Virus record (IMG/VR): IMGVR_UViG_3300037086_000398
Location: 68,362-114,133 of that record
Length of the DNA: 45,772 nt
Reading direction: 5' to 3' (one strand)
From: a virus
In this document: positions 4,283 through 45,602 of the stretch, piece after piece
Layout of the letters: each line of letters starts with the position of its first letter
Position numbering within the stretch: position 1 is the first letter of the stretch
Notes under the pieces: model-generated
Seen by the model: the letters and a program-made list of their open reading frames with translations, nothing else
Databases searched by the model: none
Told to the model about the DNA's origin: nothing
Translations under genes and position numbers: made by a program

Positions 4283-4286
4283 GATC

Positions 4287-4310
4287 AAGCCCCCGAAAGG
4301 GGGCTTTTTC
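4287..4310 (+). terminator. rho-independent terminator (GCCCCC-GAAA-GGGGGC + TTTTT)
   Basis: Perfect GC stem, GAAA tetraloop and T-tract immediately after the 3404-4282 stop. Confidence 0.7.
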
Positions 4311-4353
4311 ATTTACGGGCCAAAAGTTATAAGATAGTTTAGAGGAGGCTCGT

Positions 4354-18755: not shown

Positions 18756-19814
18756 TTGAAAATAGCTCTATTCGGCGACTTGCACATATTCAACCATTTT
18801 GGCAAGACGCAGTTTGAAGACATCGCGCAGAGTTTTTTGATTTATCTGTTTAACTATTGTAAGAAAAATCAAATCAATCAAGTTCGATTTCTTGGTGATT
18901 GGTTCCATATTAAAAACAAACTCTACGTCCCACCCTTTATCAAGAGTATCGACATCCTTCGAGATATGAAGAAATCTGGGATCGAACTAACATTTTTGAT
19001 TGGTAATCATGATGCCCCTCAAATGGGAACGACAGACCATTCCATCATGTATGCATTCAGAGAATATGGAAAAGTAGTACCACTCTATGATTGGGAAGAC
19101 ATTGATGGGGTCAGATTACATTATCTCTCATATGTAGAAGAGCTTCCAAGGTTTGAGTATGCTGAAAATAATATTTTATTGGCTCATCTCGACATTAAAA
19201 ATTTTGCCATGGACAACAATTTCATTTGTAGCGAGGGGTTTTCTGAGGAGTCTTTCGAGAAGTTCAAGTTCGTTTTCTCTGGACATTTTCATAGGCATCA
19301 AATAAGAAACAATATCGTATATGTTGGATCTCCGTATCAAACCCGTTTTTCAGAGAGATTTGACAAGAAGGGATTCATAATCCTTGACACTCAAGCTCAA
19401 AGCTGGCAGTTTCAATTCTATCAGGATGCTCCAGTATTCAAAGAAGTTTCTCCAGATTCTTTTGATCCAAAAGATGTTAGAGGGAATTTTGTCAGAGTCA
19501 GAACCCATAAAAAAAATGCCAATCTCGATGAGATCAAAACAAAACTACTAGCTCTCGGAGCTGAATCAATTGATTTCATTTTTGAGGATGAGGATGAGGC
19601 CAAGGAGCTTAACATGATTGAGGATCTGACAATGGGTTCAATGAATGACCTTGCCTCGGCCTATTACGATAATGTCACAAACAGTAAGCTCTTTGATAAA
19701 AGTATACAGGAACAGATTAGTGCTGGTGTCATGGTTAAGGATGACTTTATGACAATTTTTAGAGAGATAGAAGAAGCTGATCTAACTGGATGGAAACCCG
19801 ATGAAGAACAATAA
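18756..19814 (+). CDS. SbcD/Mre11-like recombination nuclease subunit (T4 gp47-like)
   Basis: 352 aa with calcineurin-like phosphoesterase motifs: ALFGDLH, FLGDWFH, IGNHD, SGHFH. Confidence 0.85.
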   Translation: MKIALFGDLHIFNHFGKTQFEDIAQSFLIYLFNYCKKNQINQVRFLGDWFHIKNKLYVPPFIKSIDILRDMKKSGIELTFLIGNHDAPQMGTTDHSIMYAFREYGKVVPLYDWEDIDGVRLHYLSYVEELPRFEYAENNILLAHLDIKNFAMDNNFICSEGFSEESFEKFKFVFSGHFHRHQIRNNIVYVGSPYQTRFSERFDKKGFIILDTQAQSWQFQFYQDAPVFKEVSPDSFDPKDVRGNFVRVRTHKKNANLDEIKTKLLALGAESIDFIFEDEDEAKELNMIEDLTMGSMNDLASAYYDNVTNSKLFDKSIQEQISAGVMVKDDFMTIFREIEEADLTGWKPDEEQ

Positions 19815-20097
19815 AAAAGAACTTTCTTTTCAAGAAAGACAACGTGTAGAGAAACTTGATAAGGAGGATGCTCTAGTGGCGAAATGGAAACCATTTCTAC
19901 CCGACATAAAAATCACTCGTAGGAACAGTAGAAAGCGAAGAATGATGGTTATGACGGCTCAAGTGCTCGACAATCAGGCTAACTATATGAAAAATATGAT
20001 GACCATGTCCGCTTCTCAAAAGACATTACCTGAAATGATTGCTCAGCAAATAACATCTCTTACTCCAAGAAGCCCAAGGGTAAAAGATGAACAATAG
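19801..20097 (+). CDS. hypothetical protein
   Basis: 98-aa ORF between gp47-like and gp46-like. Confidence 0.45.
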   Translation: MKNNKKELSFQERQRVEKLDKEDALVAKWKPFLPDIKITRRNSRKRRMMVMTAQVLDNQANYMKNMMTMSASQKTLPEMIAQQITSLTPRSPRVKDEQ

Positions 20098-20302
20098 TGA
20101 AATCATAGAAGAAGCCAAAAGACTCCTAAGTCAAGACACTCCAAAACCAAAAAAGAAGGTAACGAAAATTATTCCTCTTATGGCCATGGCTGGTATCACC
20201 AAGAAAGAAAAAGAACAACAATACAAAAGCCTTTTGGCCTGGGGCAAAAAGAAAATTAAGATCAAGCCACTTACTGCCAAAGAGATGAGAAAGATTAAAT
20301 GA
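20087..20302 (+). CDS. hypothetical Lys-rich small protein
   Basis: 71-aa ORF. Confidence 0.4.
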   Translation: MNNSEIIEEAKRLLSQDTPKPKKKVTKIIPLMAMAGITKKEKEQQYKSLLAWGKKKIKIKPLTAKEMRKIK

Positions 20303-20481
20303 CAAAGAAAGAGATAGCAGAAGAGGCCAAAAACTTCTCAGTATCACTCCTATTGATGAGGAAATGAAGAGAACTCTCATAGACAAATGGACTAATTTTT
20401 TAAAGAGAGTTAATGTGGATATGAAGAAAGATGCCATGATCATGGAGAGCAAATTTTCACACATATTGAATGGAAAAATGA

Positions 20482-22443
20482 ATGACATTTAAAGATATAG
20501 AGATTCAAAATTTTTTCTCGTTTGGACAAGAAGAAAAACTAGACCTTTCTACTCCTGGACTTTATCTAGTAACCGGACGAAACATGCTTACTGGAGCTTC
20601 GAATGGAGCCGGAAAATCTACAGTTTTTCATGCTGTGGAATATGCTCTTTTTGGCAAGGTCTCGAAGAGTGTCAATATAGCTGAAATGATCAATGAGCAA
20701 ATTGGAAAAAACTGCAGAGTAAGCTTAGGTTTCAATATCAATGGAAAAGATTATTGGATAGATAGATTCAGAAAAGATGAAGAATTTGGTGATGTTATTA
20801 GGGTGTTTGATGGTGCCAGAGATGAAGACCATCTCATTTCAAAAGCTGAAAAAAGAGACACTCAAGAAATCATCGACAAGATCATAAAGTTTAACTACAA
20901 GTCCTTCATCAATGCGGTTATGATGTCTCAGGAAACTATTGATGGGTTTCTCGAGGCAGAATCTTGGAGAAAGAAAGAGATTATTGAAAACATTCTGCAG
21001 TTGAATGTCATTACTAGATACCATTGGTTTGCGCAGCAGAAAAGAAAGCTTGGTAAAAAGGCCGTTGAGCGATTTACATATGAAGTTAAAACCCTTAGCA
21101 ATGGTCTTGAAAATGTCAAGAAGTCTATGACGGACTATGTTGAATCATGTAGAAAACAGAAAGATGCCAATGCAAAACTAGTAATAGAGCTTGAAAAAGA
21201 TCTTAAAAAGATCAATGAAACTGATATCGAAAAGGAGCGAGCCCTTATTACAGAAGCAGAGAGGTTGGCTCTTCTTGTTGAACAGAAAATGGTCGATTAC
21301 CAAAAGATTGTTGATCGAGTTGTCTTTTTGGAAAAAGAAAAAGACAATTATCGTTCTTCAAGAGAAGAATACAAAGATCTTACAAAGAACAATCGAAAAA
21401 CTATCAAACAGCTCAATCAAGACATTGAGAAGCTAAATACTAGTGTGAAAGATCTCCAAACTACTTTAATCAAAGTTGAAGCAAATCCCGAACTTTGTCC
21501 ATTGTGTGAAAACGCAATCAATGTTGATAAGCTTGAACATTGGAAAGATGATCAGAATGAAAAGATTAATGCCTTTATTGATAGTAAAGATGAAAAGCTC
21601 AAGTTAATTGAAAGCTCTCAATTGCAAATAATTGGTTGGGAAACCAAAGACAAAGATTTTGAGACTGGTATTGAAGATTGCATCAAGAAAATCAAAGATG
21701 AAAATAAAGCCTCTGTGGACCTCAAGAAAGAATATGAAGCAATCATTGTTCCAAGGACAATGAACTTGGATGAACTCAATGAGCTTTCAAAGAAAAAACT
21801 TGAAATAGAAGTCAAGCTTGCCGAGCTGAACAGTAAGACTTTTATCGATAAAGAATATCTCGATAAAATCAAACAGCAGGGAGTTGAAACTCTCAGAGAT
21901 TTGAATGCTAGAAAAAGAGATCTGTTGGCGGCCCAAAAGAGATTCACCATTCTGGAATGGTGGGAAGACAGTCTTTCTTCAAAGAAAAACTCAATGAAGT
22001 CCTGGTGCATTAACAACATTATCGGGTATTTCAATGCTAGATTGAAGTATTATATGGACAGGTTTTTTGATGGGACCGTAAGTATTCAAATGGACACGGA
22101 ATTAAACGAGCAAGTTACATATTTAGATAATGAAAGAACAGTTGGTCAATTCTCTGGTGGTGAAAAAAGGCGATTAAATCTCGCAATTTTGTTTGCCCTA
22201 AATAGCTTAATCAAAGCTAACTTGACAACCAAAATCAACATCATGTTCCTCGATGAGGTTTTGTCGAATTCTTTAGATGACAAAGGCATATCAACCGTGC
22301 TCGAATTGCTTGAAGAATTGAAAGATAACAAAGAGACCGTGTTTGTAATTGACCACAGAGACCATTTCAAAGACTATCCTTCTTTTGAATCTGTGGTGGT
22401 TCATAAGGATAAGAGTGGTTTTAGCCACATAGTGAAAAATTAA
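20482..22443 (+). CDS. SbcC/Rad50-like ATPase (T4 gp46-like)
   Basis: 653 aa. N-terminal Walker A (NGAGKST), long coiled coil with a CPLC zinc-hook, C-terminal ABC signature (FSGGEKRR) and Walker B (IMFLDE). Confidence 0.85.
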   Translation: MTFKDIEIQNFFSFGQEEKLDLSTPGLYLVTGRNMLTGASNGAGKSTVFHAVEYALFGKVSKSVNIAEMINEQIGKNCRVSLGFNINGKDYWIDRFRKDEEFGDVIRVFDGARDEDHLISKAEKRDTQEIIDKIIKFNYKSFINAVMMSQETIDGFLEAESWRKKEIIENILQLNVITRYHWFAQQKRKLGKKAVERFTYEVKTLSNGLENVKKSMTDYVESCRKQKDANAKLVIELEKDLKKINETDIEKERALITEAERLALLVEQKMVDYQKIVDRVVFLEKEKDNYRSSREEYKDLTKNNRKTIKQLNQDIEKLNTSVKDLQTTLIKVEANPELCPLCENAINVDKLEHWKDDQNEKINAFIDSKDEKLKLIESSQLQIIGWETKDKDFETGIEDCIKKIKDENKASVDLKKEYEAIIVPRTMNLDELNELSKKKLEIEVKLAELNSKTFIDKEYLDKIKQQGVETLRDLNARKRDLLAAQKRFTILEWWEDSLSSKKNSMKSWCINNIIGYFNARLKYYMDRFFDGTVSIQMDTELNEQVTYLDNERTVGQFSGGEKRRLNLAILFALNSLIKANLTTKINIMFLDEVLSNSLDDKGISTVLELLEELKDNKETVFVIDHRDHFKDYPSFESVVVHKDKSGFSHIVKN

Positions 22444-26784: not shown

Positions 26785-27114
26785 ATGAAACGAAATTTTT
26801 TGATCGTTTTAATAGTTCTGTTGATAGTGGGATGTTCTTCTTTCTCACTGTCGAATCCATTTCTAGGTGATTGGTCATTTGGAACTGGAAAAACAAAAGT
26901 AGATTTTTTGTTTGGAACTAGTGGAATGGTGAAAATTTCTGGTCCAAAATTTGCTGGGGTGGCTGATTACAGTTGGGACGGAGATTCACTAACTTTAAAA
27001 TACCGAACGGATTCAAGAATTTTATATTATCACTTTACATTTTCAAAGGATCATATAAAATTGAATCTTGAGGACGTCACAAAAAATATAATAGTGCTAA
27101 CGAAAGGGAAATGA
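26785..27114 (+). CDS. lipoprotein
   Basis: Start at MKRNFLIVLIVLLIVGCSS (lipobox LIVGC) with RBS AAAGGAAG. The ORF track's longer start at 26743 lacks an RBS. Confidence 0.6.
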   Translation: MKRNFLIVLIVLLIVGCSSFSLSNPFLGDWSFGTGKTKVDFLFGTSGMVKISGPKFAGVADYSWDGDSLTLKYRTDSRILYYHFTFSKDHIKLNLEDVTKNIIVLTKGK

Positions 27115-27566
27115 TGGATCTTAAGATTGTTGATCCGAAGGAAGTGGAAGGTGTTGTTTGTGAACCAGTTTCTGCTAATGATGTAGAAGCCATTATAAAC
27201 GAAACGGTTCCACAAATGAAGAAGATTCTTTTTGATTTGAATGGCTACGGCCTTGCCGCACCCCAAGTTGGAATCAAGAAAATGTTTTTCATCATCAGAG
27301 ATGGAATTGATGTTAGAACTTTTTTCAATGCAAAATATGCCAAAGCGTCTGACGGTAGGGTATCAAACGAAGAGGGATGTTTGTCGTATGGTTTTGGAAA
27401 GCGCCACGTTCCAGTGAAGAGATTTAAAAACGTGGTGGTGATTTGGGATGAGTGGAGTGGAAAGGCGTTCATTCGCAGAAGTCAGAAATTTAACGGACTC
27501 AACTCAGTAGCATTTCAGCATGAGATTGATCATATTAATGGCACAACAATTTTTACAAGAAGGTAA
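27111..27566 (+). CDS. def: peptide deformylase
   Basis: 151 aa with all three PDF motifs: GLAAPQVG, EGCLS, QHEIDHING (HExxH). Confidence 0.85.
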   Translation: MMDLKIVDPKEVEGVVCEPVSANDVEAIINETVPQMKKILFDLNGYGLAAPQVGIKKMFFIIRDGIDVRTFFNAKYAKASDGRVSNEEGCLSYGFGKRHVPVKRFKNVVVIWDEWSGKAFIRRSQKFNGLNSVAFQHEIDHINGTTIFTRR

Positions 27567-27802: not shown

Positions 27803-28852
27803 ATGCATCTCGGTTGGCCCTTAATTTTCTCAATCCTCTTGTTCATTGGAATAGGCCTTAGTCTTTATTCACTTATAAAAAAGAGGGTGTTCCAAAAAAT
27901 CATAAAATTTTTCGTAAGGACAAAAAATATGCCGGATCAAAATCAGCCTCTACAGCCAGCGATTCCAGCCAATAATCCTGGAACTGTTCCTATAACACTT
28001 CAACCTGTAGCCCCAGCCCAGCCTGGAGATAAATTGCATTTTCAGCCACCCATTTTCCCACAGATTCAAACTCTTGATAAGACAGCCTACAATGATTTCA
28101 TGAGTAAATATGATGACGGCAGTGGAACTTTTCCAAACATGGTTTATCGAAGAGGAGCTGGTGTCACTTGTCCATTTGGAATTGCTGAGGGGTATAAAAT
28201 CAAGGCAGATGGAAGCATGGAATGGGGATGGGTGAGAATTCATACCGGAGTGGATAGAGCTGGTGCTCTTTCTGTTACTGACACTCAGGGAAAAGTATGG
28301 AAGGATGCGGTTATCAATCCATTTGATGCTGACGTCACTGATTCTATTTACTATGGGGCTCATGTTTCTTATGGATTTTTGACTATGATTTATTTAACAA
28401 AATATGGCTTTATGTTTTGGATTGGACACATGCAGCCGGGCGTAGATCTCAACCCATGGGTGTATCAGCAGCTCAAGGTAAGGGCCCCAATTCAAAGAGG
28501 AGTCATTCTTGGAAGTGCTGGAGACTTTGGCGAAAGTGGTGGATCTCACACTCACACAGAGCTTTACTCAATCGCTGAAAGATCCGAAACAATTGAATTG
28601 TGTCTCTATGCAAAATTTGGTGACGACATTTTCAAGGAGTACTCCACAGACGAAATCCTTCAAGGATATAGAGAGTTTGATCACTTTGCGGATCCAAGTA
28701 TCAAGGACGAAGTAATTCTTCAAGATTGGCAAGTACAGAAGGCTGCAAGAAATGCCTTCTTTATCAACAAATACATGTATCGTTTCAACGAAGGTGGATC
28801 TGGAAGAACTAAGACTAGATATTCAACCACCTATGCTTTTGCAGGACTCTGA
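27803..28852 (+). CDS. M23-family metallopeptidase with an N-terminal TM/signal-anchor and Pro-rich linker (lysis or peptidoglycan-remodelling candidate)
   Basis: 349 aa. TM LGWPLIFSILLFIGIGLSLYSLI; M23-like HTGVDRA and GGSHTHTE (HxH) motifs. Confidence 0.55.
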   Translation: MHLGWPLIFSILLFIGIGLSLYSLIKKRVFQKIIKFFVRTKNMPDQNQPLQPAIPANNPGTVPITLQPVAPAQPGDKLHFQPPIFPQIQTLDKTAYNDFMSKYDDGSGTFPNMVYRRGAGVTCPFGIAEGYKIKADGSMEWGWVRIHTGVDRAGALSVTDTQGKVWKDAVINPFDADVTDSIYYGAHVSYGFLTMIYLTKYGFMFWIGHMQPGVDLNPWVYQQLKVRAPIQRGVILGSAGDFGESGGSHTHTELYSIAERSETIELCLYAKFGDDIFKEYSTDEILQGYREFDHFADPSIKDEVILQDWQVQKAARNAFFINKYMYRFNEGGSGRTKTRYSTTYAFAGL

Positions 28853-29412
28853 TGATTGTACATGTTGATATGGACAATACTGCAAATGATTTTAGTGGTG
28901 GATTCATAACAGAATTCAACAGAATTACTGGATCAAACTTTGTGCTACCACGTGAAAACCATGCGGAATATGAAATCTTCAAAAACATTCCCAACATTGT
29001 CAATGGAGATGGCGTAAAACTCAGAGAACAAATCTTTACCACTCCAAAATTCTGGGAAAATCTTGAACCAATGCCAGATTTTGAGAGAATAATGAAACTA
29101 CTCTGCAACAAATACAGTGCTGATGCTGGAGATGTTTATATTCTAACAGCAGCCTGGCCAACATATGAAGATTGTTGGACTGAGAAAGTCAGATGGGTAA
29201 AGAAAGTTCTCCCATTTTTTGATCTACATAAAATTATTTTTTCATGGAACAAATCGATCATCAAAGGAGACATACTTATTGATGACTCTCCAAAATACTT
29301 GGAGACATTCAATGGAGACAGTGTGGCATATGATTGGCCCTATAACCGAAATGTAAAGGTTGAATATAGAGTTCATAACTGGGAAGAAATTGGGAGGTAC
29401 TTGAGAGTATGA
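28852..29412 (+). CDS. 5'(3')-deoxyribonucleotidase, HAD superfamily (NT5C-like)
   Basis: 186 aa. DxDxT motif VDMDNT at the N-terminus and DILIDD motif IV. Confidence 0.6.
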   Translation: MIVHVDMDNTANDFSGGFITEFNRITGSNFVLPRENHAEYEIFKNIPNIVNGDGVKLREQIFTTPKFWENLEPMPDFERIMKLLCNKYSADAGDVYILTAAWPTYEDCWTEKVRWVKKVLPFFDLHKIIFSWNKSIIKGDILIDDSPKYLETFNGDSVAYDWPYNRNVKVEYRVHNWEEIGRYLRV

Positions 29413-33383: not shown

Positions 33384-33725
33384 ATGGAATACTTGATCTT
33401 TAAGATTCATGACAAACAAATAGCTGCTCCAATTACAGATGATTATAATTTAGAAGCAACTCAAATAAACAAGATCTTGACAGTCCATAACAGAAAAAGC
33501 AAGCTTATCAAAGGTGCCATCAACTACAAGGGCAACCTTATTAATGTCATCGACATCAGTCCTCTATATAAAAAGAGATCTTTAGGAAAGTTTGATGGAT
33601 TGATTTTTGTTAATAGGCGTGGATTGACTTTTGCAATAAAGTTCGAAGGATTTTTTCAAAGAAAGGATTCTATTGAGAAGGGGATGGAGAAGATTGACAT
33701 CAAGAAGATTATTAAGATGCTCTAG
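33384..33725 (+). CDS. hypothetical protein
   Basis: 113 aa. Its stop shares a CTAG with the stop of the convergent minus-strand gene. Confidence 0.45.
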   Translation: MEYLIFKIHDKQIAAPITDDYNLEATQINKILTVHNRKSKLIKGAINYKGNLINVIDISPLYKKRSLGKFDGLIFVNRRGLTFAIKFEGFFQRKDSIEKGMEKIDIKKIIKML

Positions 33726-35047
33726 GCCGTTCTAAATGAAAGCTTTTTATTGAGTGTGTTAACTGATGTGCTTGGTGAATCAAATTCAAATTTTGTGGTT
33801 GAGAATAGTTTTACTACGAATCTTAATCTTTCTTTTTCTTCATAAACATGTATTTGTTGAACATTGATCTTGCTTAAGAATTTGCTGAGAGCGTCCAACA
33901 AATCCTCCCGCCTATTCAAATACTTTACCAAACCGTTGATAAATGGACCAATCAAGTATCCTGCACCACCTTGAGCTTGTTCACTCTTTGGATCATATTT
34001 GATTTCTTTTGCTCCGGTTGAGATCTTGTCATAAAACTTTCTCAAGCTCAGTTCAGCCTTTCCTTGTTGATAGAGCATGTTGAGAGCATAAGAGATTTGT
34101 TGTTTGATTTCTCCAGGAGATAGATCTAAATCGATTTCACCAGTTATTTTCTGAAGTTCTTTAAGACCATTCCACTCTGGGAACATGTTGGCGATTTTCA
34201 AATAACCATTCAACATTTCTTCTTCTTTGACTGTTTTCAAAAGCCTTACCAATATTGGCGATTTGGCCTTTTTGATGAAATCGTCACCAGTGACCGTAGC
34301 TAAAGATCCAGCCGCACCACTCCCTGCTTTCATAGAAATAGGATCATCACCAGAGAAAAAATCAACAAGAGGATTGTTTGATTCTAGAGGGAATCTAATG
34401 GGCTTACCTTCTTTTCTAGAAAAGAGCATTGCCCCAAGAATTTCACCAAAATCGTTTAAAATAGCATTTTTGCTGCTGATTGAAACATCAACATCAAATT
34501 CTTCATCTTTATTCACATAGACAACATTGCCTGCATCTATTAGTTTCCCATATCTGACGGTGTTCAAAAGAAGAGTGAGATATTTCTTTATTTTTGGATC
34601 GTCTTCTTTTTTATCGATCTGTGGAACTATTTTCTTGTAGAAATCTTTGGGTGTCGCAAAATCTTGACCTGCTAAATTAAGTGCTTTGGGAGTGAATTTC
34701 TTTATTCCAGATTTTCCAGAAATCATTGAATCGACTATATAAATGATTGCATCATCACTTTCTACTCGATAGGTTCTAAATTTGCCAGATCTGGAATCTT
34801 CGGTGCCAGGAGGATATGAAGTAATTTTAACCTTGATTCCGATAATCTTCGACATTTCCTTGAGCACTACTGTTGTCAAATTTTCGTTTCCACTGATGTC
34901 AAATCTTAGATCTGGTGATGGACCACCATGCCCGCCTGGGTTTTTTTGATTCTTTTTATATTGGAGAAGCTGTTCTTCAAACGACTTTCTCAGAGTTGAT
35001 TTAGGGCTACCAATAAGTTCTTCGAAGAGTCGCTCAAAGAAGTTCAT
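33722..35047 (-). CDS. hypothetical protein (distal gene of the minus-strand cassette)
   Basis: 441-aa ORF with no recognisable motif. Confidence 0.6.
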   Translation of the reverse strand: MNFFERLFEELIGSPKSTLRKSFEEQLLQYKKNQKNPGGHGGPSPDLRFDISGNENLTTVVLKEMSKIIGIKVKITSYPPGTEDSRSGKFRTYRVESDDAIIYIVDSMISGKSGIKKFTPKALNLAGQDFATPKDFYKKIVPQIDKKEDDPKIKKYLTLLLNTVRYGKLIDAGNVVYVNKDEEFDVDVSISSKNAILNDFGEILGAMLFSRKEGKPIRFPLESNNPLVDFFSGDDPISMKAGSGAAGSLATVTGDDFIKKAKSPILVRLLKTVKEEEMLNGYLKIANMFPEWNGLKELQKITGEIDLDLSPGEIKQQISYALNMLYQQGKAELSLRKFYDKISTGAKEIKYDPKSEQAQGGAGYLIGPFINGLVKYLNRREDLLDALSKFLSKINVQQIHVYEEKERLRFVVKLFSTTKFEFDSPSTSVNTLNKKLSFRTA

Positions 35048-35049
35048 GA

Positions 35050-35559
35050 TTATCCTATTGGGAAAGGTCCGTTTAGAATGTGTTTGGGCGCAAAATAGGT
35101 AGAAACATCTGAGAGAGACTGTACAGAATACTCTCCAACGGTTCCCTTAAAGGCTGATGATGTTAGAGCAGTAATATATTCCCAATCTGTTCCTTGAACA
35201 GTTCCAACACCAGTCTTTAAAATTAAAATCTTATCTCCAGTACCGGGTACGGCACCATTAACTGGATCTGGTCCAGTGTTTAGAATAATTACTTCCTTTT
35301 GCACAAAGAAGAACCCAGCCGCTTTTGCAGTCTTAAATGCGGCTTCATTTACAAAGCTATGGGCTCTCCAAACTTCACTTAAAGATGATATATGAAGGTC
35401 GAGATTAACTTCTGTATCAATTCCACGGGAAACACACTGTAACCAAAGGTTAGTGGCACCAGCGCTTCCTCCAACAGAAGCAGCCAAAACAACGTATTTT
35501 GGAGGTATATAGTTTGCGCTCGTCTCTGAATTGAGCATCACATATTCTACAATGTTCAT
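35050..35559 (-). CDS. hypothetical Gly/Thr/Val-rich protein
   Basis: 169-aa ORF, 2-nt gap to the downstream gene. Confidence 0.55.
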   Translation of the reverse strand: MNIVEYVMLNSETSANYIPPKYVVLAASVGGSAGATNLWLQCVSRGIDTEVNLDLHISSLSEVWRAHSFVNEAAFKTAKAAGFFFVQKEVIILNTGPDPVNGAVPGTGDKILILKTGVGTVQGTDWEYITALTSSAFKGTVGEYSVQSLSDVSTYFAPKHILNGPFPIG

Positions 35560-35576
35560 TAGAATCTCCTTTTGCT

Positions 35577-36890
35577 TTATCTTTTCAGAAGGTCGTCCAA
35601 AGATTCAGACAGTTTGCTCTTCTGCCAAAAGAAATTATTAAAATAAGAGATAGCTAGCTCTTTATAAGTCATATGATTGACGAGCTCCTTCTCGAATCTA
35701 TCAAGTTCATATAGTTGGGCCTGAATATTGTCTCTTTCAAAAGTTCTAGAGGGGGTTATTTCTCGAAGTTTTTCTCTTGCTCTTTCAACAGCGCGCTGTA
35801 TTTCACCTCTCTCTTTAACCTCAGCATTGATATCAAGCTTCTTGTTTCTAGCTAAAAGCAGCTTTGAAACGCTGCCATATTCAGCAACCTTTTTTTTATC
35901 TAGTTCTTTGAGCTTTACATTCAGAACCTTATTTCCAATCAAAGTTTTTAATTCACTTAATGGATCTGGTGGTCGATCTAAGACTTGATAGAAGCTACCA
36001 AACTTGCCAGTTATCTTGTAGGCCTTACCGTTGAAATGGACCACTAGTCCTTCAATTCCAAGATCATCTGATTTCAGGTCTGCCAATTTTGATTTCATGT
36101 TTCCAAGAATTTCAGATCCAACTTCAAGAGACACTTCTTTCATAAAGATTTTGAGTTCTTCTTGATTGCCACCAAAGTTAATAATTTGTGGTTTATATTT
36201 TTCCCAAACTTGTTTAGCTTTTTCATTTTTTGCTACGGTGGACGGCAAAACTGCGATGGGGCCCTTAAAAAGCCAGAATGTTTTCTCTGCAACTGGAAAT
36301 CTTCCAGAGACGTTGTAGTCAAAATGAGATTGCTGAGTGGCGACAGTACCAAACTTATTGGCCAATCGGGTGAGAATATTTTTAGCGTCTTTCTCATTAA
36401 GGTTGCGGGATCTTTCATATCCAGTGTCTTTTGTTCCACGAAGATCATGAAATACAATATAGTTCTTTTCTTTGCTATATTTGACCAAATTTGGCTGTTC
36501 ACCATAAATAATTTCAAGATTGATGAAGTTTTTTGGTTCGTCACTTATGTCCATAAGTTGATATGTTTGGCGTTCAGAGATTGATAGCTTCTCCATAGCC
36601 GACTTAATTGCATTAAATCCTGATCTAAAAGCTGGCAAGGCCGGATGTGACTTTCTGAACTTTTCAAATGGATTGTCGAATGGCTCTTCATTAGCATTTC
36701 TAGCAGCCACAACCTTTTTGTCTCTATTAAATCCTACGAAAAGATTGAGACCGTCCACCTTTTCTGTAGCCAGAAGTTTTCCGTCTAATAGAGAATCATA
36801 GAATTCAATAAATTGTTGAGGAGATAAATCATCTGAAGGGTGGGAAATATGGCCGGCAACCCCGCCCTCTGTTAGGAACTCAAAAGTCAT
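35577..36890 (-). CDS. ATP-dependent RNA ligase-like nucleotidyltransferase (Rnl family candidate)
   Basis: 437 aa. Ligase motif I TEKVDG (KxDG), motif IV EGLVVH and motif V KAYKITGK in the correct order and spacing. Confidence 0.55.
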   Translation of the reverse strand: MTFEFLTEGGVAGHISHPSDDLSPQQFIEFYDSLLDGKLLATEKVDGLNLFVGFNRDKKVVAARNANEEPFDNPFEKFRKSHPALPAFRSGFNAIKSAMEKLSISERQTYQLMDISDEPKNFINLEIIYGEQPNLVKYSKEKNYIVFHDLRGTKDTGYERSRNLNEKDAKNILTRLANKFGTVATQQSHFDYNVSGRFPVAEKTFWLFKGPIAVLPSTVAKNEKAKQVWEKYKPQIINFGGNQEELKIFMKEVSLEVGSEILGNMKSKLADLKSDDLGIEGLVVHFNGKAYKITGKFGSFYQVLDRPPDPLSELKTLIGNKVLNVKLKELDKKKVAEYGSVSKLLLARNKKLDINAEVKERGEIQRAVERAREKLREITPSRTFERDNIQAQLYELDRFEKELVNHMTYKELAISYFNNFFWQKSKLSESLDDLLKR

Positions 36891-37648
36891 TTTCTCTCCT
36901 CTATATATTGATACATCATTTTCATCATTCTTTTTGTTGCAGGGTGCCTCATTCCAAGAGAGCTAAGGTAGTAACTAAAATTGCTTTTCATGGAATTAAT
37001 AAGTCGCTTATTGGTTTTTGAGAGCGGATTTGAAATAACCTCAAGCATTCCCTTTTTTGTAAAACCCATCTGTCTAAACTCTTCAATGGATTGGCGAGCA
37101 AAGGCCATTATCTCATATTTGTCCGACATATATTTATCGGTATTAATAGCCCTCAAGTTCGCAAATTTCATGAAATTCGTTTTCTCAAGCGTCTTTTTTG
37201 CTTTTCTGATTTTTGCCATTTGCTTCTTGTGCACTAATTCATGGGCAAAGAGTTGAAGTAACAGACTCAGAAAAACTTCGTACGATTTATCATTCAGTTT
37301 AAAAATACCACCAGAGAGACTAACTCCCAAAATACCATCATCATACATACTGGCGCCCTGGAAACCATACTTTCCCCAGTCTGCTCCGCCAGTTCTGCCG
37401 TATTCAAACTCAATATTATTGTTTATGAAAGACAGATCTTCTGAATTCATAAAATCAACGAATCGATCAACAAACTCTTTCACGTTTCCTGAGTCTGATT
37501 TTCTCAGCTGGCGGCGATAATACTTGATTTTGTTCAGTATATCATCCTTGTTCTCTCTGAATAGAGAGGCCACTCTGTTCATTGTTGTTGGGCTAGGTTG
37601 TAATACCATGGTATTTAGCTCCAAAAAATGATTATCCAGGGTTCCCAC
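36887..37648 (-). CDS. hypothetical protein with an HExxH motif (HELVH); putative zinc-dependent hydrolase
   Basis: 253 aa; ATGA overlap with the ligase-like gene. Confidence 0.5.
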   Translation of the reverse strand: MGTLDNHFLELNTMVLQPSPTTMNRVASLFRENKDDILNKIKYYRRQLRKSDSGNVKEFVDRFVDFMNSEDLSFINNNIEFEYGRTGGADWGKYGFQGASMYDDGILGVSLSGGIFKLNDKSYEVFLSLLLQLFAHELVHKKQMAKIRKAKKTLEKTNFMKFANLRAINTDKYMSDKYEIMAFARQSIEEFRQMGFTKKGMLEVISNPLSKTNKRLINSMKSNFSYYLSSLGMRHPATKRMMKMMYQYIEERK

Positions 37649-38258
37649 TCCTCATCTCTAGAAACATTTTTCTGAAAAACTTGCGTTGCCCTTCAGAGAT
37701 GAGATACTTTCTCAAAGTCATGAACTCGTCGTGGATTCCGACGGGAACTAAACTTTGAAACGTCTCCTTGTCATTATTTTTGATGGCTTCCCTGACCTTA
37801 GAAGCTGATACGTTATCAGCAGAATCCATATCGCGGGCGATCTCTTGGATTTCTGCACTGACACCATCGTTGTCAAAATAATCATCCAACTGCTTCTTAT
37901 ATGCTGCTATTCTGTCAGTTCCTGCTAGTAAAACTAACCTTTTTTTAAGATTTTCCTTGGATGTAAGTTTTAATATGTTGTCCATGATTTCTGGAACAAA
38001 CCCAGACGGAGCCGAAATGATGTGTGATGGATGGATCTTACCACCGAAAGCCATGTAAATAAGTCTGAGACGGAGGCCTAATGGAAACGGGTTCTTTTCC
38101 TTGTCTTTTTGGGTCTTGGTTCCCCGCACGACTACGATGAAGATCTGTTGAAACTTCTTCCTGGCAGAGTCTATTATCTCATAATGAACTTTTGTTATTG
38201 GTTGGAATCGACCGATAATAAGGGCCGTGCCTACCTCGTGTTCTTCATATAGCTGCAT
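37632..38258 (-). CDS. cytidylyltransferase-fold nucleotidyltransferase, NadM/NMNAT-like
   Basis: 208 aa. N-terminal LIIGRFQPITKVH (variant of GRFQPxHxGH) and C-terminal SASKVRE (ISSTxIR-like) motifs. Confidence 0.5.
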   Translation of the reverse strand: MQLYEEHEVGTALIIGRFQPITKVHYEIIDSARKKFQQIFIVVVRGTKTQKDKEKNPFPLGLRLRLIYMAFGGKIHPSHIISAPSGFVPEIMDNILKLTSKENLKKRLVLLAGTDRIAAYKKQLDDYFDNDGVSAEIQEIARDMDSADNVSASKVREAIKNNDKETFQSLVPVGIHDEFMTLRKYLISEGQRKFFRKMFLEMRSGNPG

Positions 38259-38646
38259 GTGTTTATCTTGCTTTTTCCAGGTCTCCGGAGCATATTTATG
38301 GTTGTAATGCGATCTCGACTATGTAAAAATGTTCGAAAGCTTCGGTTGCTTGTCGAAAAAAACAAAGATCAGATATTCAAAATCATTGTCTCAGAAGCAT
38401 TCATTCAGACAATCTCTAAATGCCTCGATGAGGTGGAGATAGAAAAGAGTGAAATCGAGGATGGAGAGGTCTGGACCCTATGGGGCATACCACTGCAAGA
38501 ATCCCTCCAAATCAAAGGTGCCGTTCTGGAGATGAAAGATGGTGAGTTTATAGTAATAGAAGGTATTTATTAAAACCTATTGTTCCTGAACGTCATCCTG
38601 TCTGAAACGAAAGATATACGAATAAAGAAAGTATGGAGGTAAAAAC

Positions 38647-41600
38647 GTGACCAAGTGGACCTGGATTCAACCCATCAGTGAGGAAGTATTCGCCAACAAA
38701 TATAAGTTTCATAGAAAGAATGTAGAAGAGGTTTTTGATGATATATCGACCGTAGTTTCAGGATCGGAAGATGTAGAAATAAGAAAAGACATCAAAGCTC
38801 GGTTTTATACTGAGATGATTGAGGGGAGATTCATCCCTGCGGGTAGAATTCTTGCAAATGCATGGCCAAAAAGTGGTATAAAGAACCTAATGAATTGTTA
38901 TACCATAGGGATTGATGACTCTATGGAAAGCATCTATGATTCTCTTAAGGAAGATGCGAGGATTAGTAAGGTTGGTGGTGGAGTCGGTTTTGACATTTCA
39001 AACTTAAGACCAAAAAACAGCCCCTTATCAGTAGGTGGTGAGGCTTCTGGTCCTATATCTTTCCTACGGATTTTTGATGCTTCAGCTAAGACCATCATGA
39101 CGGGTGGTTCGAGGAGAGCAGCCCACATCGCTCTCTTAGATGTTTCTCATCCTGATATTGAAGAGTTTATTACATGCAAACAGGGTGACAAAAACAAAGT
39201 ATTGACACAATTCAACATTAGTGTCAAAATCACAAACAAGTTTATGAATGCTGTTGAAAAGGATCTCGATTGGGATCTAAGTTTCAATGGCAAGATCTAC
39301 AAGACCGTGAAAGCGCGGTATCTTTATGATCTAATAGCTCGAAACGGGTTCGAACACAACGAACCTGGAATGTTTAATGTAGATATTGTAAATAAATACA
39401 ACAACGGATATTACAGCTATGTTATCAACGAATGCAATCCGTGTATTGTTGGAGATACTCTGATCGCGGTTGCTGATGGAAGGAATGCTATTTCTATTAG
39501 AGATCTAGCCGAGACTGGAGAAGATGTACCGGTCTATACTAAGGATGAAAAGGGCAAAACGGTGATTCGAATGATGAGGAATCCAAGAAGCACTGGATAC
39601 AATAAGAAGATAGTAAAAGTGAATCTTGATGATGGGACATACATTAGGTGCACGGAAAATCATAGCTTTATGCTCAATGATGGAACGTACAGAGAAGCCA
39701 AAAAATTGTTAGCCGGCGACAGTCTAAAGAGATTCGATTCTTATCCAAACAACAACTATCGACAGATCAACTCTGGTACCGCTCGAGATCGTAGACAATA
39801 CAAAATGATCGCTGAGTTTAACGACCTTATAACTGATGGCAAGACTCAAGCAGTTCATCATTATGATTTTGATTCACTTAATGATCTAGTAGAAAATCTT
39901 GTCGTGATGGATAGGCGAGAACATCACAAGATGCACTCTGAGAGAATGAAAGGAGCAAACAATCCTGTTAACAGATTCCCAGAGAAAAATCCATTCAACA
40001 ACCCAGAAATACAACAGAAGATCAGAGAAGAACATCATATTGGAGCAAAGAGAAGTGAGGAAACTCGAAGAAGAATTGGAGAGAAGACTAGAGAGAGATG
40101 CCAGGACCCAGTATATATGAAAAATTTTCGAGCCTCGTTGGTAGGAAAAAATCATAAGGTCCTTTTCGTTGAAGAAGATGGAATTGAAAATGTATACAAT
40201 GGGACTGTAGATGATTTCCACAATTATGCTGTAATAACTTCTCATGACGACGATCGATTTATTGGAAGCTCTGGTATATTCGTAAAAAATTGTGGTGAAC
40301 AGGCGCTTCCCCGGTACGGTATATGTAATCTTGGTGCAATTAATCTAGCAAAGTTTATCAAGAATGAATTTGAAGACAACGCCGAGTTTGATTTTTTGGC
40401 GTTTGCAGAGACTACAAGGCTCGGTGTGAGATTTCTTGATAATGTACTAGACGCCTCAGAATACCCACTTGAAAAAGTGGCGAAGCATGCTCATGACTGG
40501 AGAAGAATCGGACTTGGTTTCACTGGACTTGGCAATGTTTTTGCGATGATGAAAATCAAGTACGGATCAGAGGAATCAAAGAAGTTAAGCAGGGAAATCG
40601 CAAAATCTCTCCGCGACAACTCGTATCTAGCATCAGCTCACCTAGCTAAAGAAAAGGGCAAGTTTCCAAGTTGTGAAAAGGAAAAACTTCTTGAGTCCAA
40701 TTTCGTTAAGAAACTTCCAGAAGAAATCAAAACAATGATCTCGAAGCATGGTTTAAGAAATGTTTGCATTAATACCGTAGCACCAACTGGAACAATTTCT
40801 CTCACCATTGGTCAAAATTGCTCATCTGGAATTGAGCCAATCTTTGCTCTAGAGTATAAGAGAAGAGTAAGGAAGGTTGATGATGAATTTACTGAACAAG
40901 TTGTATATGATTATGGGTGGCTTCAGTACCAGGCTTGGTGTGCAAAGAAGGGTATTTTGTTTGATGCTAAGAAGGTCCCAGAGTATTTTGTAACGACAAA
41001 AGACATTAGCACTTATGACTCCATTGATGTTCAAGCCATTTTCCAGAAGTATGTTGACGCTTCAATTTCTAAGACTCTTAATTTGCCAGAGAATATTACT
41101 TTTGAAGAATACAAGAAACTCTTCAGCTACGCATATGAAAAAGAATTGAAGGGATTCACAACTTTTAATCCACTAGGTTCAATGAAGGGAATCTTGGAAT
41201 ATAATGATCCAAAAGAAGCAAATGGAAATGGTAATGGTGACAGTGGCCACGCCTCTTATATTAAGAGAAGAATGGCACCACATAGACCAGCCTCTCTAGA
41301 ATGTGACATTCATCAATTCATAGTAAAAGAAAAGAAGACTGTAGTTTTGGTTGGCAAGCTAAATGGTTCTTTATATGAAGTCTTTGTTGATGACGATGCA
41401 AACGGTTCTATTGACGGATCAAAATATACAACTGGAATCATTAAGAAAGCTGGACAAGGTCAATATAGTTTGATTGTTCATGAGGGTGAAAAAGAAAAGG
41501 TATTGGTGGAAAATCTGAGTAAAAACTTTGGTGGGACATATGGAAGTCTAGCGAGACTCGTTTCCATGTCTCTAAGGCATGGAACACCATTACAGTTTGT

Positions 41601-41787
41601 TGTCGATCAACTTTCAAAAAGTAAAGAATTTGGAGGATTTGAGAAGTCTGTTTCTCGAGTTCTCAAAAAGTATATCAAAGACGGAGAAGTTGTCATGACC
41701 TCAACCACTTGTCCTATGTGTGGAAGTGATCTGATATTTAAGGAGGGGTGTGTCAGCTGTCTCTGTGGCTGGTCCAAGTGCGCATAA
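38647..41787 (+). CDS. nrdJ: ribonucleotide reductase large subunit with class-II (NrdJ-type) NPCGE active-site motif, interrupted by an intein; C-terminal Zn ribbon
   Basis: 1046 aa with a GTG start and SD GGAGG. Contains GGGVGFDISNLRP and NECNP-[intein]-CGEQALP. C-terminal CPMCGS...CVSCLCGW. Confidence 0.85.
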   Translation: MTKWTWIQPISEEVFANKYKFHRKNVEEVFDDISTVVSGSEDVEIRKDIKARFYTEMIEGRFIPAGRILANAWPKSGIKNLMNCYTIGIDDSMESIYDSLKEDARISKVGGGVGFDISNLRPKNSPLSVGGEASGPISFLRIFDASAKTIMTGGSRRAAHIALLDVSHPDIEEFITCKQGDKNKVLTQFNISVKITNKFMNAVEKDLDWDLSFNGKIYKTVKARYLYDLIARNGFEHNEPGMFNVDIVNKYNNGYYSYVINECNPCIVGDTLIAVADGRNAISIRDLAETGEDVPVYTKDEKGKTVIRMMRNPRSTGYNKKIVKVNLDDGTYIRCTENHSFMLNDGTYREAKKLLAGDSLKRFDSYPNNNYRQINSGTARDRRQYKMIAEFNDLITDGKTQAVHHYDFDSLNDLVENLVVMDRREHHKMHSERMKGANNPVNRFPEKNPFNNPEIQQKIREEHHIGAKRSEETRRRIGEKTRERCQDPVYMKNFRASLVGKNHKVLFVEEDGIENVYNGTVDDFHNYAVITSHDDDRFIGSSGIFVKNCGEQALPRYGICNLGAINLAKFIKNEFEDNAEFDFLAFAETTRLGVRFLDNVLDASEYPLEKVAKHAHDWRRIGLGFTGLGNVFAMMKIKYGSEESKKLSREIAKSLRDNSYLASAHLAKEKGKFPSCEKEKLLESNFVKKLPEEIKTMISKHGLRNVCINTVAPTGTISLTIGQNCSSGIEPIFALEYKRRVRKVDDEFTEQVVYDYGWLQYQAWCAKKGILFDAKKVPEYFVTTKDISTYDSIDVQAIFQKYVDASISKTLNLPENITFEEYKKLFSYAYEKELKGFTTFNPLGSMKGILEYNDPKEANGNGNGDSGHASYIKRRMAPHRPASLECDIHQFIVKEKKTVVLVGKLNGSLYEVFVDDDANGSIDGSKYTTGIIKKAGQGQYSLIVHEGEKEKVLVENLSKNFGGTYGSLARLVSMSLRHGTPLQFVVDQLSKSKEFGGFEKSVSRVLKKYIKDGEVVMTSTTCPMCGSDLIFKEGCVSCLCGWSKCA
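39442..40290 (+). mobile_element. intein (283 aa) with an HNH-type homing endonuclease domain, inserted in the RNR catalytic NPC|GE motif
   Basis: Begins CIVGDTLIAV (block A) and contains TENHSF (block B). HNH-like HHYDFDSLNDLVENLVVMDRREHHKMH. Ends ...IFVKN followed by +1 Cys. The reconstituted extein reads NECNPCGEQ. Confidence 0.75.
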
Positions 41788-44579: not shown

Positions 44580-45602
44580 GTGGAAAAAACTGTAATTGGA
44601 GTTGGCCAGACTGGAACCAGGCTTGCCGCTCTATATGCACAGAAGGGAGATGCCCTTCTTACATTTAATACTGATGTGAGAGATTCTGGTGGAATTCGAC
44701 TAGGAACAGATAGAATCATTACTAATGGTGGAGCAGGACAAAATTATTCAAGAGGATTGAAGATTTGGGCAGAAGGTCGCGAAAAACTTGAAAGGTATTT
44801 GGAACCAATTATAGATAAGGATGTTATTTATTTTGTTGCAGCTGGTGGAGGTAGTGGATCTTCTTCAGTCGTAGCTTTTCTCAACATCTTGATGAGACAG
44901 AAAAATAGAATCCTTCTGATTGCAACGCTGCCTTTCATCAAAGAATCAATTCCCGCTACAGCAAATGCCACTCGTCTTTTGAGTCGATTAGCGGAGTTTT
45001 CGAACAATATGTCTGTGTTTATTATATCAAATGATGAACTCTCAAAAGAACTTGATGATAGTTCTCTTGATGGAATCAACAAAGAAATTGTTGATTCAAC
45101 TCGACTTTTGACGGATTTGATTAACTATCATGAAGACCGTCATTTTACACCATTTGCAATTGATGAGGCTGATCATCGATCGATTGTTTATTCTGGTGGA
45201 TTCATAAACTATTCAATTGATGATCTAGACGGAGAAAATGGAAATGGTCCTCATTTGCCGAAATTTTCATATGGCAATCCAAGAGAAGCCTCAAACATTC
45301 TAGTGACTCGCTTCCTCGACACGAGAATGAACAACGAACAGTCCATGGCTGAGGGTGATAAACTTATGAGTATTGTCACAAAGGTCGGTGGAATAAAAGG
45401 TGCAAGAATTATTTACGGCGTCGTTCGATCAAACAAAGTTTTGCCCAAATATTTGACCATTGCTTCTGGTCTCAAGATCGACAAAATTTTTGCCAAACTG
45501 AAGGGCTCTGCCACTGATTCTGCAGTGAGGTATGCCGAGAAAACCAATTTCAAAGAAACAAGAAAGCTTCAAAAAGAAGAAGACAAGCTTTTAAACATAT
45601 AA
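44580..45602 (+). CDS. tubulin/FtsZ-superfamily GTPase (PhuZ/TubZ-like phage tubulin candidate)
   Basis: 340 aa with a GTG start and RBS AGGGAG. N-terminal VIGVGQTGTRLAA (FtsZ T1-like), AAGGGSGSS (tubulin signature GGGTGSG-like), NDELSKELDD (T7-like). Confidence 0.5.
   Translation: MEKTVIGVGQTGTRLAALYAQKGDALLTFNTDVRDSGGIRLGTDRIITNGGAGQNYSRGLKIWAEGREKLERYLEPIIDKDVIYFVAAGGGSGSSSVVAFLNILMRQKNRILLIATLPFIKESIPATANATRLLSRLAEFSNNMSVFIISNDELSKELDDSSLDGINKEIVDSTRLLTDLINYHEDRHFTPFAIDEADHRSIVYSGGFINYSIDDLDGENGNGPHLPKFSYGNPREASNILVTRFLDTRMNNEQSMAEGDKLMSIVTKVGGIKGARIIYGVVRSNKVLPKYLTIASGLKIDKIFAKLKGSATDSAVRYAEKTNFKETRKLQKEEDKLLNI

Follow-up and report, generated by a model that had tools for sequence, protein, structure and literature searches.

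A reverse-strand cassette in a T4-like myovirus represents a widespread phage module with a ligase-like protein and an NMNAT-like adenylyltransferase at its core

Introduction

The described systems closest to the subject of this article, a five-gene cassette on the minus strand (33722-38258) of a 45,772-nucleotide stretch of viral DNA, are the Pnkp and Rnl1 enzymes of T4, the Rnl families of RNA ligases, the archaeal NMNATs together with the phage NadM and NadR enzymes, the polyvalent proteins, and the Pfam family DUF6267 (PF19782). The stretch, positions 68,362 to 114,133 of IMG/VR record IMGVR_UViG_3300037086_000398, is referred to in its whole length as the window. The cassette proteins are named after their lengths in amino acids (aa): p208, p253, p437, p169, and p441. 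The labels CT, LIG, and NUC denote p208-like, p437-like, and p441-like domains, respectively, and X denotes a domain of about 410 aa.

As in the cassette, a phage ligase of the same superfamily is clustered with accessory enzymes in the T4 Pnkp and Rnl1 system, plausibly for mending broken nucleic acid. The cassette differs in its partners, however, which comprise an adenylyltransferase together with a PD-(D/E)xK-like protein and an HExxH protein. None of its proteins matches a kinase, HAD, 2H, or Rnl1 model, and neither a tRNA gene nor an anticodon nuclease is part of the context. The ligase-like protein, p437, differs from the Rnl2, REL1, and Rnl5 (Naegleria, Deinococcus) RNA ligases in matching no ligase profile of Pfam, PHROGs, or NCBIfam, and from Rnl families in having an invariant, family-specific N-terminal GGxxGHMxHP motif and an insert between motifs IIIa and IV. 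We know of no Rnl family for which adjacency or fusion to a HIGH-family adenylyltransferase has been reported. The adenylyltransferase-like protein, p208, has in common with the archaeal NMNATs (MJ0541 and the M. thermautotrophicus enzyme) a GRFQPxHxGH-type motif, NPF after strand 2, and SxTxxR. The p208 family differs from these enzymes and from phage NadM/NadR in that Thr usually replaces the first His of HxGH and an extra GxDR is invariant. In contrast to the phage NadM/NadR salvage enzymes, p208 has neither a Nudix or kinase domain nor a NadV partner in view, and its family is fused to ligase-like domains instead. Polyvalent proteins (PMC5512222) resemble the module in containing the p253 domain, in their variable fusions, and in the virion association of cyanophage CT homologues; in the window, however, the components are separate genes, and p253 matches neither MPTase-PolyVal nor any LPD domain. 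DUF6267 fills the slot beside CT, or is fused to it, after p441-like and p253-like genes, but shares no significant profile-profile similarity with the p437 family.

The cassette is one version of a widespread phage module that has a ligase-like and NMNAT-like core and is usually accompanied by nuclease-like and HExxH genes. We give about even weight to the view that this module, confined to phages, processes nucleic-acid ends and joins them, with an OB-less Rnl-type ligase and an NMNAT-like adenylyltransferase as its core. The OB-less Rnl architecture and the fold matches to RNA ligases make RNA the likelier substrate, although the module might instead act on nicked phage DNA or RNA:DNA hybrids.

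The ligase-like protein p437

At E ≤ 1, p437 has no ligase-family match in Pfam, PHROGs, or NCBIfam (PF09414, PF09511, and DNA_ligase_A_M included), and sequence and profile searches of the PDB give chance matches only. Its homologues lie at 35-46% identity, and remoter ones align to the N-terminal third. Motif I is found at K44 (KVDG) and is followed by E126, H148, E280-G-L, and K292. Nine residues (H14, H17, K44, D46, G47, E126, N134, Y138, and H148) are invariant in 84/84 distinct family members, and E280-G and K292 are nearly so; the conserved positions map to the N-terminal GGxxGHMxHP and to ligase motifs I, III, IIIa, IV, and V. Invariant catalytic-type residues, seen here and in the partner proteins below, suggest that the cassette proteins are active enzymes. 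The motifs from which the original prediction started (KxDG with further ligase motifs, a cytidylyltransferase fold, and HExxH) are all present and invariant across homologues.

The AlphaFold2 (AF2) model of p437 is confident (pLDDT 82) and has the fold of a nucleotidyltransferase domain, with motifs III, IIIa, IV, and V in order. The insert between motifs IIIa and IV is helical with a beta-hairpin. Past motif V the model is wholly helical, and a family-specific extra domain stands in place of an OB domain and motif VI. The best structural matches are to the T. brucei RNA-editing ligase REL1 (score 9.9), the Naegleria RNA ligase Rnl5 (9.6), T4 Rnl2 (8.6), fungal tRNA ligase (8.5), and archaeal Rnl3 (8.4), with DNA ligases at 8.3 and lower. 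Because no OB domain follows motif V, the architecture is that of an RNA ligase and not of a DNA ligase or capping enzyme, and p437 as modeled is a divergent, OB-less covalent nucleotidyltransferase, polynucleotide ligase-like and of Rnl architecture. The ATP-dependent DNA ligases known to us carry an OB domain. Assignment as a capping enzyme was rejected, as the OB domain is absent and capping enzymes are not among the top fold matches.

The p437 family is essentially viral and near-absent from cellular genomes. IMG/VR holds at least 483 relatives, and 185,579 prokaryotic species genomes (one per species) give 2 matches, both on contigs of metagenome-assembled genomes; one of the two (L258) is the same as contig L003, whose genes look viral.

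A different use of such a protein would be as a substitute DNA ligase. LIG and CT would then seal nicks in phage DNA (in Okazaki fragments, recombination intermediates, or packaged DNA) in place of a T4 gp30-type ligase, and p441 would be a DNA nuclease. This is somewhat unlikely, given that p437 lacks an OB domain and that its best fold matches are RNA ligases, although the cassette lies amid replication, recombination, and nucleotide-metabolism genes (gp46/47-like, UvsX, DEAD helicase, and ribonucleotide reductase (RNR)) and most PD-(D/E)xK enzymes are DNA nucleases. The complete genome of Microcystis phage Mel-JY01, which carries a fused form of the module, also fits a substitute ligase in that it has no annotated DNA ligase and does have a separate canonical Rnl1; its annotation, however, is sparse. 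The cyanophages, discussed below, provide a further argument.

The NMNAT-like protein p208

By its sequence, p208 is a HIGH-motif enzyme of the adenylyl/cytidylyltransferase fold. It scores 42.4 bits against Pfam PF01467 (cut-off 21; E 1e-10), matches PHROG 'cytidyltransferase' families and, weakly, PHROG 3462 'NMN adenylyltransferase', and carries the motifs GRFQPITKVH, GxDR, and SASKVR. Within the family H25 is invariant (123/123), and S151 (122/123) and R156 (120/123) are almost so. A profile of 11 family members finds among solved structures the NMNAT of M. jannaschii (MJ0541, 3e-14), that of M. thermautotrophicus (1e-9), and NadM (1e-8), and almost as good are phosphopantetheine adenylyltransferases (PPATs, 6e-8). 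The label glycerol-3-phosphate cytidylyltransferase (TagD), borrowed in cyanophage papers, was rejected for p208, as there is no TagD/GCT among the top-ranked PDB profile matches, which are NMNATs and PPATs.

The NMNAT models of NCBIfam score p208 3-10 fold under their curated cut-offs: 35.7 against 127 for NF002243, 28.2 against 181 for TIGR01527, 30.5 against 112 for TIGR00482, and at most 25 against at least 350 for the NadM/Nudix models. As these scores are so far under the cut-offs, NMNAT membership is not established, and 'NMNAT-like' is a fair term for a resemblance. The 208-aa protein had been proposed as NadM/NMNAT-like; its place in the HIGH family is borne out, with archaeal NMNAT and NadM as the apparent nearest solved relatives.

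These scores bear on another reading, also proposed originally, in which the cassette would house two separate counter-defence functions, a T4-like repair of tRNAs cut by host anticodon nucleases and the reconstitution of NAD+ against NAD-depleting defences. Both RNA repair and NAD+ salvage are established strategies among phages (PMC9503650 and PMC7824862), and the RNA-ligase-like fold of p437, the NMNATs nearest to p208, and the weak PHROG 3462 match would suit it. It is nevertheless unlikely. In addition to the sub-cut-off scores, p208 is single-domain, with no Nudix or kinase fusion. There is no NadV-sized unassigned ORF (open reading frame) in the window, and no NAPRTase Pfam match in the related contig L006 or in flanks of about 15 kb (about 10 kb + about 5 kb); according to a survey of viral NAD+ systems (PMC9503650), NadV is present in every NadM phage. 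The analogy to T4 tRNA repair is not supported either, as the cassette encodes no Pnkp, 2H enzyme, or Rnl1-type ligase, and scans of the window found no tRNA genes and no Rfam matches. The recurrent fusion of p208-like to ligase-like domains, described next, likewise argues against NAD+ reconstitution as an independent function.

Recurrence and fusion of the module

The whole five-gene block is kept in the metagenome contig L006 (JGI 3300082197, Ga0673036_0000002) between RNR and helicase genes, and the CT and ligase pair is kept in the remoter relatives L005 and L003/L004. In hundreds of viral contigs the ligase-like gene is either adjacent to CT or fused with it. Wider conservation was assessed by scanning, with hidden Markov models, three sets of 80 IMG/VR loci seeded by ligase-like, DUF6267, and p441-like genes; as many loci are incomplete and ORFs were scanned stop-to-stop, the neighborhood counts are lower bounds. 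A CT domain lies within 6 kb in 60/80 ligase-seeded loci. Among the 80 loci seeded by p441-like genes, 45 have a ligase-like gene, 31 have ligase and CT, and 7 have ligase, CT, and p253. In this set CT is present in 31/45 loci with a ligase-like gene versus 0/35 without one (Fisher p = 1.8e-11). The p208-like gene is an obligate partner of the ligase-like gene.

The components are also joined covalently. Module domains are linked in 52 distinct fusion proteins. The architectures counted are X-CT (27 distinct proteins), CT-LIG (19), LIG-CT (3), DUF6267-CT (2), X-CT-NUC (1), and X-NUC (1), and the fusion polypeptides reach 1228 aa. The recurrence of CT-ligase fusions favors one shared pathway over two. 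Gene order in the window is CT -> p253 -> LIG -> p169 -> NUC; recurrent arrangements elsewhere are LIG -> X-CT -> NUC and, in at least 10 contigs, p253 -> NUC -> DUF6267 -> CT.

It is therefore highly improbable that the cassette is a set of chance neighbors, unrelated genes that merely share a strand. The lineage-specific p169 and the many nuclease-like genes that have no ligase or CT in view would fit such an explanation, but the 52 fusions, the co-occurrence of CT with the ligase, the block-level conservation in L006, and a four-gene synteny that recurs in unrelated contigs would not. The proposal that the cassette is a functional unit is upheld in this respect: the block is whole in L006, and many viral contigs again have the ligase, CT, nuclease-like, and HExxH components, either side by side or as fusions. 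The KxDG protein was placed in neither a DNA ligase nor a capping-enzyme family, and p208 in no unrelated cytidylyltransferase subfamily.

Mel-JY01, a cultured phage, encodes a 639-aa CT-LIG fusion annotated as 'cytidylyltransferase like protein'. Since this phage has a canonical Rnl1 beside a tRNA in addition to the CT-ligase fusion, the module is not simply a tRNA-repair ligase, which also counts against the two-function reading and sets the module apart from the T4 system. The Rnl1 gene (L254 47201-49633) lies between an AAA/STAND-like ATPase gene and tRNA-Leu.

Domain X, found at L036 7217-8461 and in 26 related sequences, lies N-terminal to CT; in L028 and L068 it is joined to the nuclease-like domain as well. 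It contains a TEK...G motif. Pfam gives no match for it, and sequence and profile searches of the PDB give only chance matches. Its motifs TEKxxxSSF, DRT, FGFxY, LTH, IDGLI, and KSFKL occur in ligase-like order, and hhalign comparison with the p437 family gives a weak similarity (E 0.0026, probability 12%). Domain X may be a second ligase-like domain, which is offered as a lead.

CT homologues, either stand-alone or C-terminal, are also found in conserved clusters of hypothetical genes in Stenotrophomonas phage Moby (L010), Xanthomonas phage X1 (L009), and Vibrio phage phiKT1024 (L011). The clusters of X1 and Moby are just upstream of baseplate-hub genes, and the phiKT1024 locus has a tail-fibre gene at its edge. 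No ligase-like gene is detectable in these three clusters, and one GenBank record calls the CT gene 'tail fiber protein'.

The nuclease-like protein p441

The 441-aa protein had been thought to carry no recognizable motifs, a view that the homologue alignment (13, later 70 distinct sequences) overturns. In it D199-F-G-E202, N224, D229, S238-x-K240, and G244 are invariant, and E202, D229, S238, and K240 remain so in 70/70. In the AF2 model (pLDDT 73), E202 is on helix 190-213, D229 just before strand 230-232, S238 on strand 235-239, and K240 right after it. Enzymes of the Cfr10I/NgoMIV type have an SxK variant in which the Glu is relocated, and the arrangement modeled in p441 appears to be that of a PD-(D/E)xK nuclease of this 'SxK plus relocated Glu' kind. 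The fold matches are weak and include tRNA-splicing endonuclease subunits, I-Ssp6803I, HhaI, ThaI, NhoI, HinP1I, and Hjc. Foldseek comparison with viral models finds six uncharacterized phage proteins, one of them from Agrobacterium phage Atu_ph07. On the model and these residues, p441 is a phage-specific protein and likely a nuclease.

Longer p441-like proteins of about 685-705 aa occur in L195, L203, L212, and about 25 other NUC-seeded loci. They have a conserved N-terminal extension of about 250 aa (...DPMGFI.KKYH.L...APKPTTFK...), followed by an acidic Gly-rich linker. Often neither a ligase gene nor CT is in view, or the ligase gene is about 4 kb upstream.

The HExxH protein p253 and the small protein p169

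An exhaustive HMMER search finds p253 homologues in 117 representative clusters; tblastn against phages gives no match. H136, E137, H140, Q143, Y173, and E179 are invariant in 30/30 aligned members and form an HExxH...Y...E pattern characteristic of zincins, the spacing of which resembles that of anthrax lethal factor. From this pattern p253 is predicted to be a zincin-like metallohydrolase. A p253-like gene adjoins a p441-like gene in 11/19 matches. Giant multidomain proteins also contain the p253 domain, in combination with ART-PolyVal, 2H phosphoesterase (4/9 examined), GNAT, SprT-like, and topoisomerase I domains. Such polyvalent proteins have been proposed to be delivered into the host by phages and conjugative elements (PMC5512222).

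p169 has only 3 homologues among 5.8 billion proteins. In L005, a remoter contig, a shortened homologue of 101 aa directly follows the ligase gene. The protein evolves faster than its neighbors (its identity to the orthologue in L006 is 51%, and dN/dS is about 0.2) and is still under purifying selection. It is a small, lineage-specific protein that accompanies the ligase gene in this clade. In Pfam, PHROGs, NCBIfam, and PADLOC, four of the five cassette proteins have no match.

DUF6267 and the cyanophages

In cyanophages, DUF6267, an uncharacterized protein of cyanomyoviruses, takes the position of the ligase. At least 599 relatives of DUF6267 are found in IMG/VR. CT is present in 72/80 DUF6267-seeded cyanophage loci, and in 49/49 of those where the downstream sequence suffices. 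The order DUF6267, then a small gene, then the cytidylyltransferase gene is seen in 72 of the 80 cyanomyovirus loci (L092-L171) and also at L002 6729-9762; the cultured Kyanoviridae phage C48C1 has exonuclease -> p441-like -> DUF6267 -> small gene -> 'cytidyltransferase'. On reading the sequences, DUF6267 has the motifs KWDG, EGYV, and VKLV and an N-terminal HMTHIED reminiscent of GHMxHPxD. p437 itself has no match to PF19782 at E ≤ 1, and hhalign comparison of the p437 family with DUF6267, using three increasingly diverse alignments, gives E 0.4, 0.05, and 0.03, none of them significant. As the profile similarity is never significant, the relationship is described as positional equivalence with short shared motifs, and homology is not claimed.

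The gp30 DNA ligase is a 'non-cyanophage core' gene (PMC5349666), and quasi-core replication genes are missing from marine cyanophages (PMC2993671). Cyanomyoviruses are without gp30, which makes DUF6267 a candidate for the ligase that they are missing. That 72/80 cyanophage loci nonetheless have this KxDG protein followed by CT is a point in favor of the substitute DNA ligase, weakened by the failure of profile comparison to tie DUF6267 to the p437 family. A full-text search of the literature found no mention of DUF6267. The cyanophage CT gene is called 'cytidylyltransferase' and is regarded as an auxiliary metabolic gene of unclear role (PMC9146016).

Cyanophage CT homologues (cytidylyltransferases) have been detected in the proteomes of purified virions, namely S-SZBM1 gp140 (PMC9146016) and S-CREM2 ORF154 (PMC10665884). 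These detections raise the question of whether the cassette encodes effectors that are carried in the virion, injected with the DNA, and active at the start of infection, in protecting or modifying ends or in disarming host factors. Such a role would be compatible with end processing and joining, from which it differs chiefly in when and how the proteins are delivered; as an explanation in its own right it is very unlikely. The p253 domain in giant polyvalent proteins, the fusion of module proteins into very long polypeptides, and the location of CT genes beside baseplate or terminase genes in X1, Moby, and Mel-JY01 are consistent with it, but just 2-3 peptides underlie the proteomic detections, the cyanophage CTs share only about 22-29% identity with p208, and the cassette in the window is among replication genes, not structural ones.

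A model for the cassette

Under the reading favored here, in which the cassette processes and joins ends, the proteins would act in the following steps. p441 would trim or cut broken or damaged ends during infection; it is the frequent presence of a nuclease-like partner that suggests trimming or cleavage of ends before joining. p437 would then self-adenylylate on K44, pass the AMP to a 5'-phosphate, and seal the break. p208 would either supply or regenerate the adenylate donor at the ligase, possibly through the reversible NMNAT reaction NAD+ + PPi <-> NMN + ATP (PPi, pyrophosphate), or pre-adenylylate the 5'-phosphate end; direct adenylylation of a 5'-phosphate is the chemistry of NMN + ATP -> NAD+. 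p253 would serve as a metallohydrolase, a role that related domains may also have in polyvalent proteins injected by phages. The analysis directly shows that the genes are real, which folds, motifs, and invariant catalytic-type residues they have, how the module is conserved and fused, and that it is confined to viruses; what the substrate is, in which order the steps run, what p208 does, and whether there is a counter-defence purpose are inferred. A counter-defence role is possible; none of the five proteins matches a PADLOC defence or anti-defence family at E ≤ 0.1.

Several observations weigh against the model. Whether the substrate is RNA or DNA, and what p208 does, do not follow from the sequence. 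The cassette has no end-healing kinase, phosphatase, or 2H enzyme, which repair of RNA with 2',3'-cyclic-phosphate/5'-OH ends would need. p253 has no match in Pfam or among solved structures, and no peptidase family (e.g. MPTase-PolyVal) is matched at E ≤ 1. In the loci seeded by p441-like genes, 35/80 have no ligase-like gene in view. Finally, Mel-JY01 has a canonical Rnl1 (PF09511, E 1.7e-16) separate from its fusion protein.

A bolder version is rather unlikely. It holds that the pair is a new two-enzyme ligation machine, in which p208 feeds the donor, perhaps for ligation on NAD+ or another dinucleotide, or pre-adenylylates 5'-phosphate ends, and that DUF6267-CT is the missing cyanomyovirus ligase and the machine is partly virion-borne.

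Layout of the cassette and the surrounding genome

The coordinates of the cassette genes and of other features discussed are listed in Table 1. The ORF list has the five minus-strand ORFs exactly where the original prediction placed them, and its description of the junctions agrees with the coordinates, from which, starting at p208, follow a 17-nt overlap, a 4-nt overlap (ATGA), a 17-nt gap, and a 2-nt gap. At the distal end, the stop of p441 and that of the convergent plus-strand gene do share a CTAG; as had been claimed, there is no room for a terminator, and a sequence scan found no terminator-like hairpin at this site. The convergent junction also overlaps in L006.

Table 1. Positions of the cassette genes, their boundaries, and other features of the window
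Feature	Position	Strand	Remarks
p441 gene	33722-35047	minus	441 aa, ORF list
p169 gene	35050-35559	minus	169 aa, ORF list
p437 gene	35577-36890	minus	437 aa, ORF list
p253 gene	36887-37648	minus	253 aa, GTG start, ORF list
p208 gene	37632-38258	minus	208 aa, ORF list
CTAG common to the stops of p441 and the convergent gene	33722-33725		distal cassette end; letters read directly
Cassette head, short divergent junction	38259-38297		p208 start (38258) to first in-frame ATG (38298) of the plus-strand gene
Convergent gene	33384-33725	plus	
Possible second reverse-strand gene	20126-20488	minus	120-aa ORF, ATG start
Genes flanking the 120-aa ORF	19801-20097 and 20482-22443	plus	
RNR large-subunit gene	38647-41787	plus	1046 aa, intein-interrupted
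Tubulin-like gene	44580-45602	plus	340 aa
Overlapping ORF pair, first ORF	3404-4282	plus	292 aa
Overlapping ORF pair, second ORF	3410-4312	minus	300 aa
Peptide deformylase and NT5C 5'-nucleotidase genes	27111-27566 and 28852-29412		

p253 has an alternative ATG at 37609, with GGAG about 10 nt 5' of it. The resulting 240-aa form corresponds to ORF residues 14-253 and is the one in the protein library (P0036). Translation may start there instead of at the GTG, in which case the 17-nt overlap with p208 becomes a 22-nt gap. Sigma-70-like sites around the cassette are at chance level (14 observed versus 14.1 expected); the promoter is presumed to lie in the short divergent junction at the cassette head or in neighboring coding sequence.

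The five ORFs are genuine genes under purifying selection, as pN (0.09-0.32) is far under pS (0.66-0.81, near-saturated) in every comparison with L006. The orthologous proteins there are of 208/253/437/201/442 aa in identical gene order, flanked by an RNR gene that contains an intein and by a gene for a DEAD-box helicase. Amino acid identity is 84% for p208, 75% for p253, 82% for p437, 51% for p169, and 78% for p441. With the helicase gene included and p169 (51%) excepted, the range is 75-86%. The convergent plus-strand gene exceeds all cassette genes and the helicase in conservation (95% identity, pN 0.04) and has a weak CheW-like match (E 0.013). The L006 contig, on which the nearest relative of the block lies, is reported at 732,019 bp versus 114 kb for the contig of the window; a megaphage, a concatemer, or a mis-assembly might account for its size.

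The cassette is the sole multi-gene minus-strand block of the window, in line with the original description of it as the only substantial one, and only over 34-38 kb do GC skew and AT skew turn negative. A lone 120-aa ORF on the same strand, in an otherwise empty gap between two plus-strand genes, may be a second reverse-strand gene. Elsewhere a 292-aa plus-strand ORF and a 300-aa minus-strand ORF overlap nearly completely, and only the former is called on the Logan contig.

The window is part of a T4-like myovirus. It encodes tail sheath, baseplate hub, gp46/gp47-like SbcCD, UvsX, peptide deformylase, NT5C, and RNR. No DNA-level relative of the block was found among 50,697 phage records. The large subunit of RNR is interrupted by an intein, and its L006 orthologue has a Pfam Intein_splicing match between RNR domains. 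The tubulin-like gene has a precomputed match to Pfam Tubulin (PF00091), which makes it a tubulin/PhuZ/TubZ-like gene in a myovirus of about 114 kb; just downstream of it are a gene of 362 aa and one for a DnaB-like helicase. A ribosomal protein S21 gene adjoins the deformylase gene in the related contigs L005 and L006. Mel-JY01 also has S21 and deformylase genes, widely separated in its genome.

Significance

Each enzyme of the cassette comes from a known superfamily, and the ligase family is one that all profile libraries tried fail to recognize. The partnership of a ligase with a HIGH-family adenylyltransferase and the four-component module appear to be undescribed. A full-text search found no description of a ligase/HIGH-nucleotidyltransferase pair, including in two reviews (PMC9503650 and PMC7824862) and in the polyvalent-protein paper (PMC5512222).

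The divergent ligase, the SxK nuclease, and the HExxH hydrolase may, with the activities predicted for them, serve as reagents. The recurrent ligase-adenylyltransferase fusions provide a biochemical hypothesis for thousands of unannotated phage genes. If it is true, polynucleotide ligation would be coupled to a second nucleotidyltransferase in a previously unseen way, and the module would bear on two questions, how DNA is sealed in gp30-less cyanophages and how phages mend nucleic acids that host defences have attacked.

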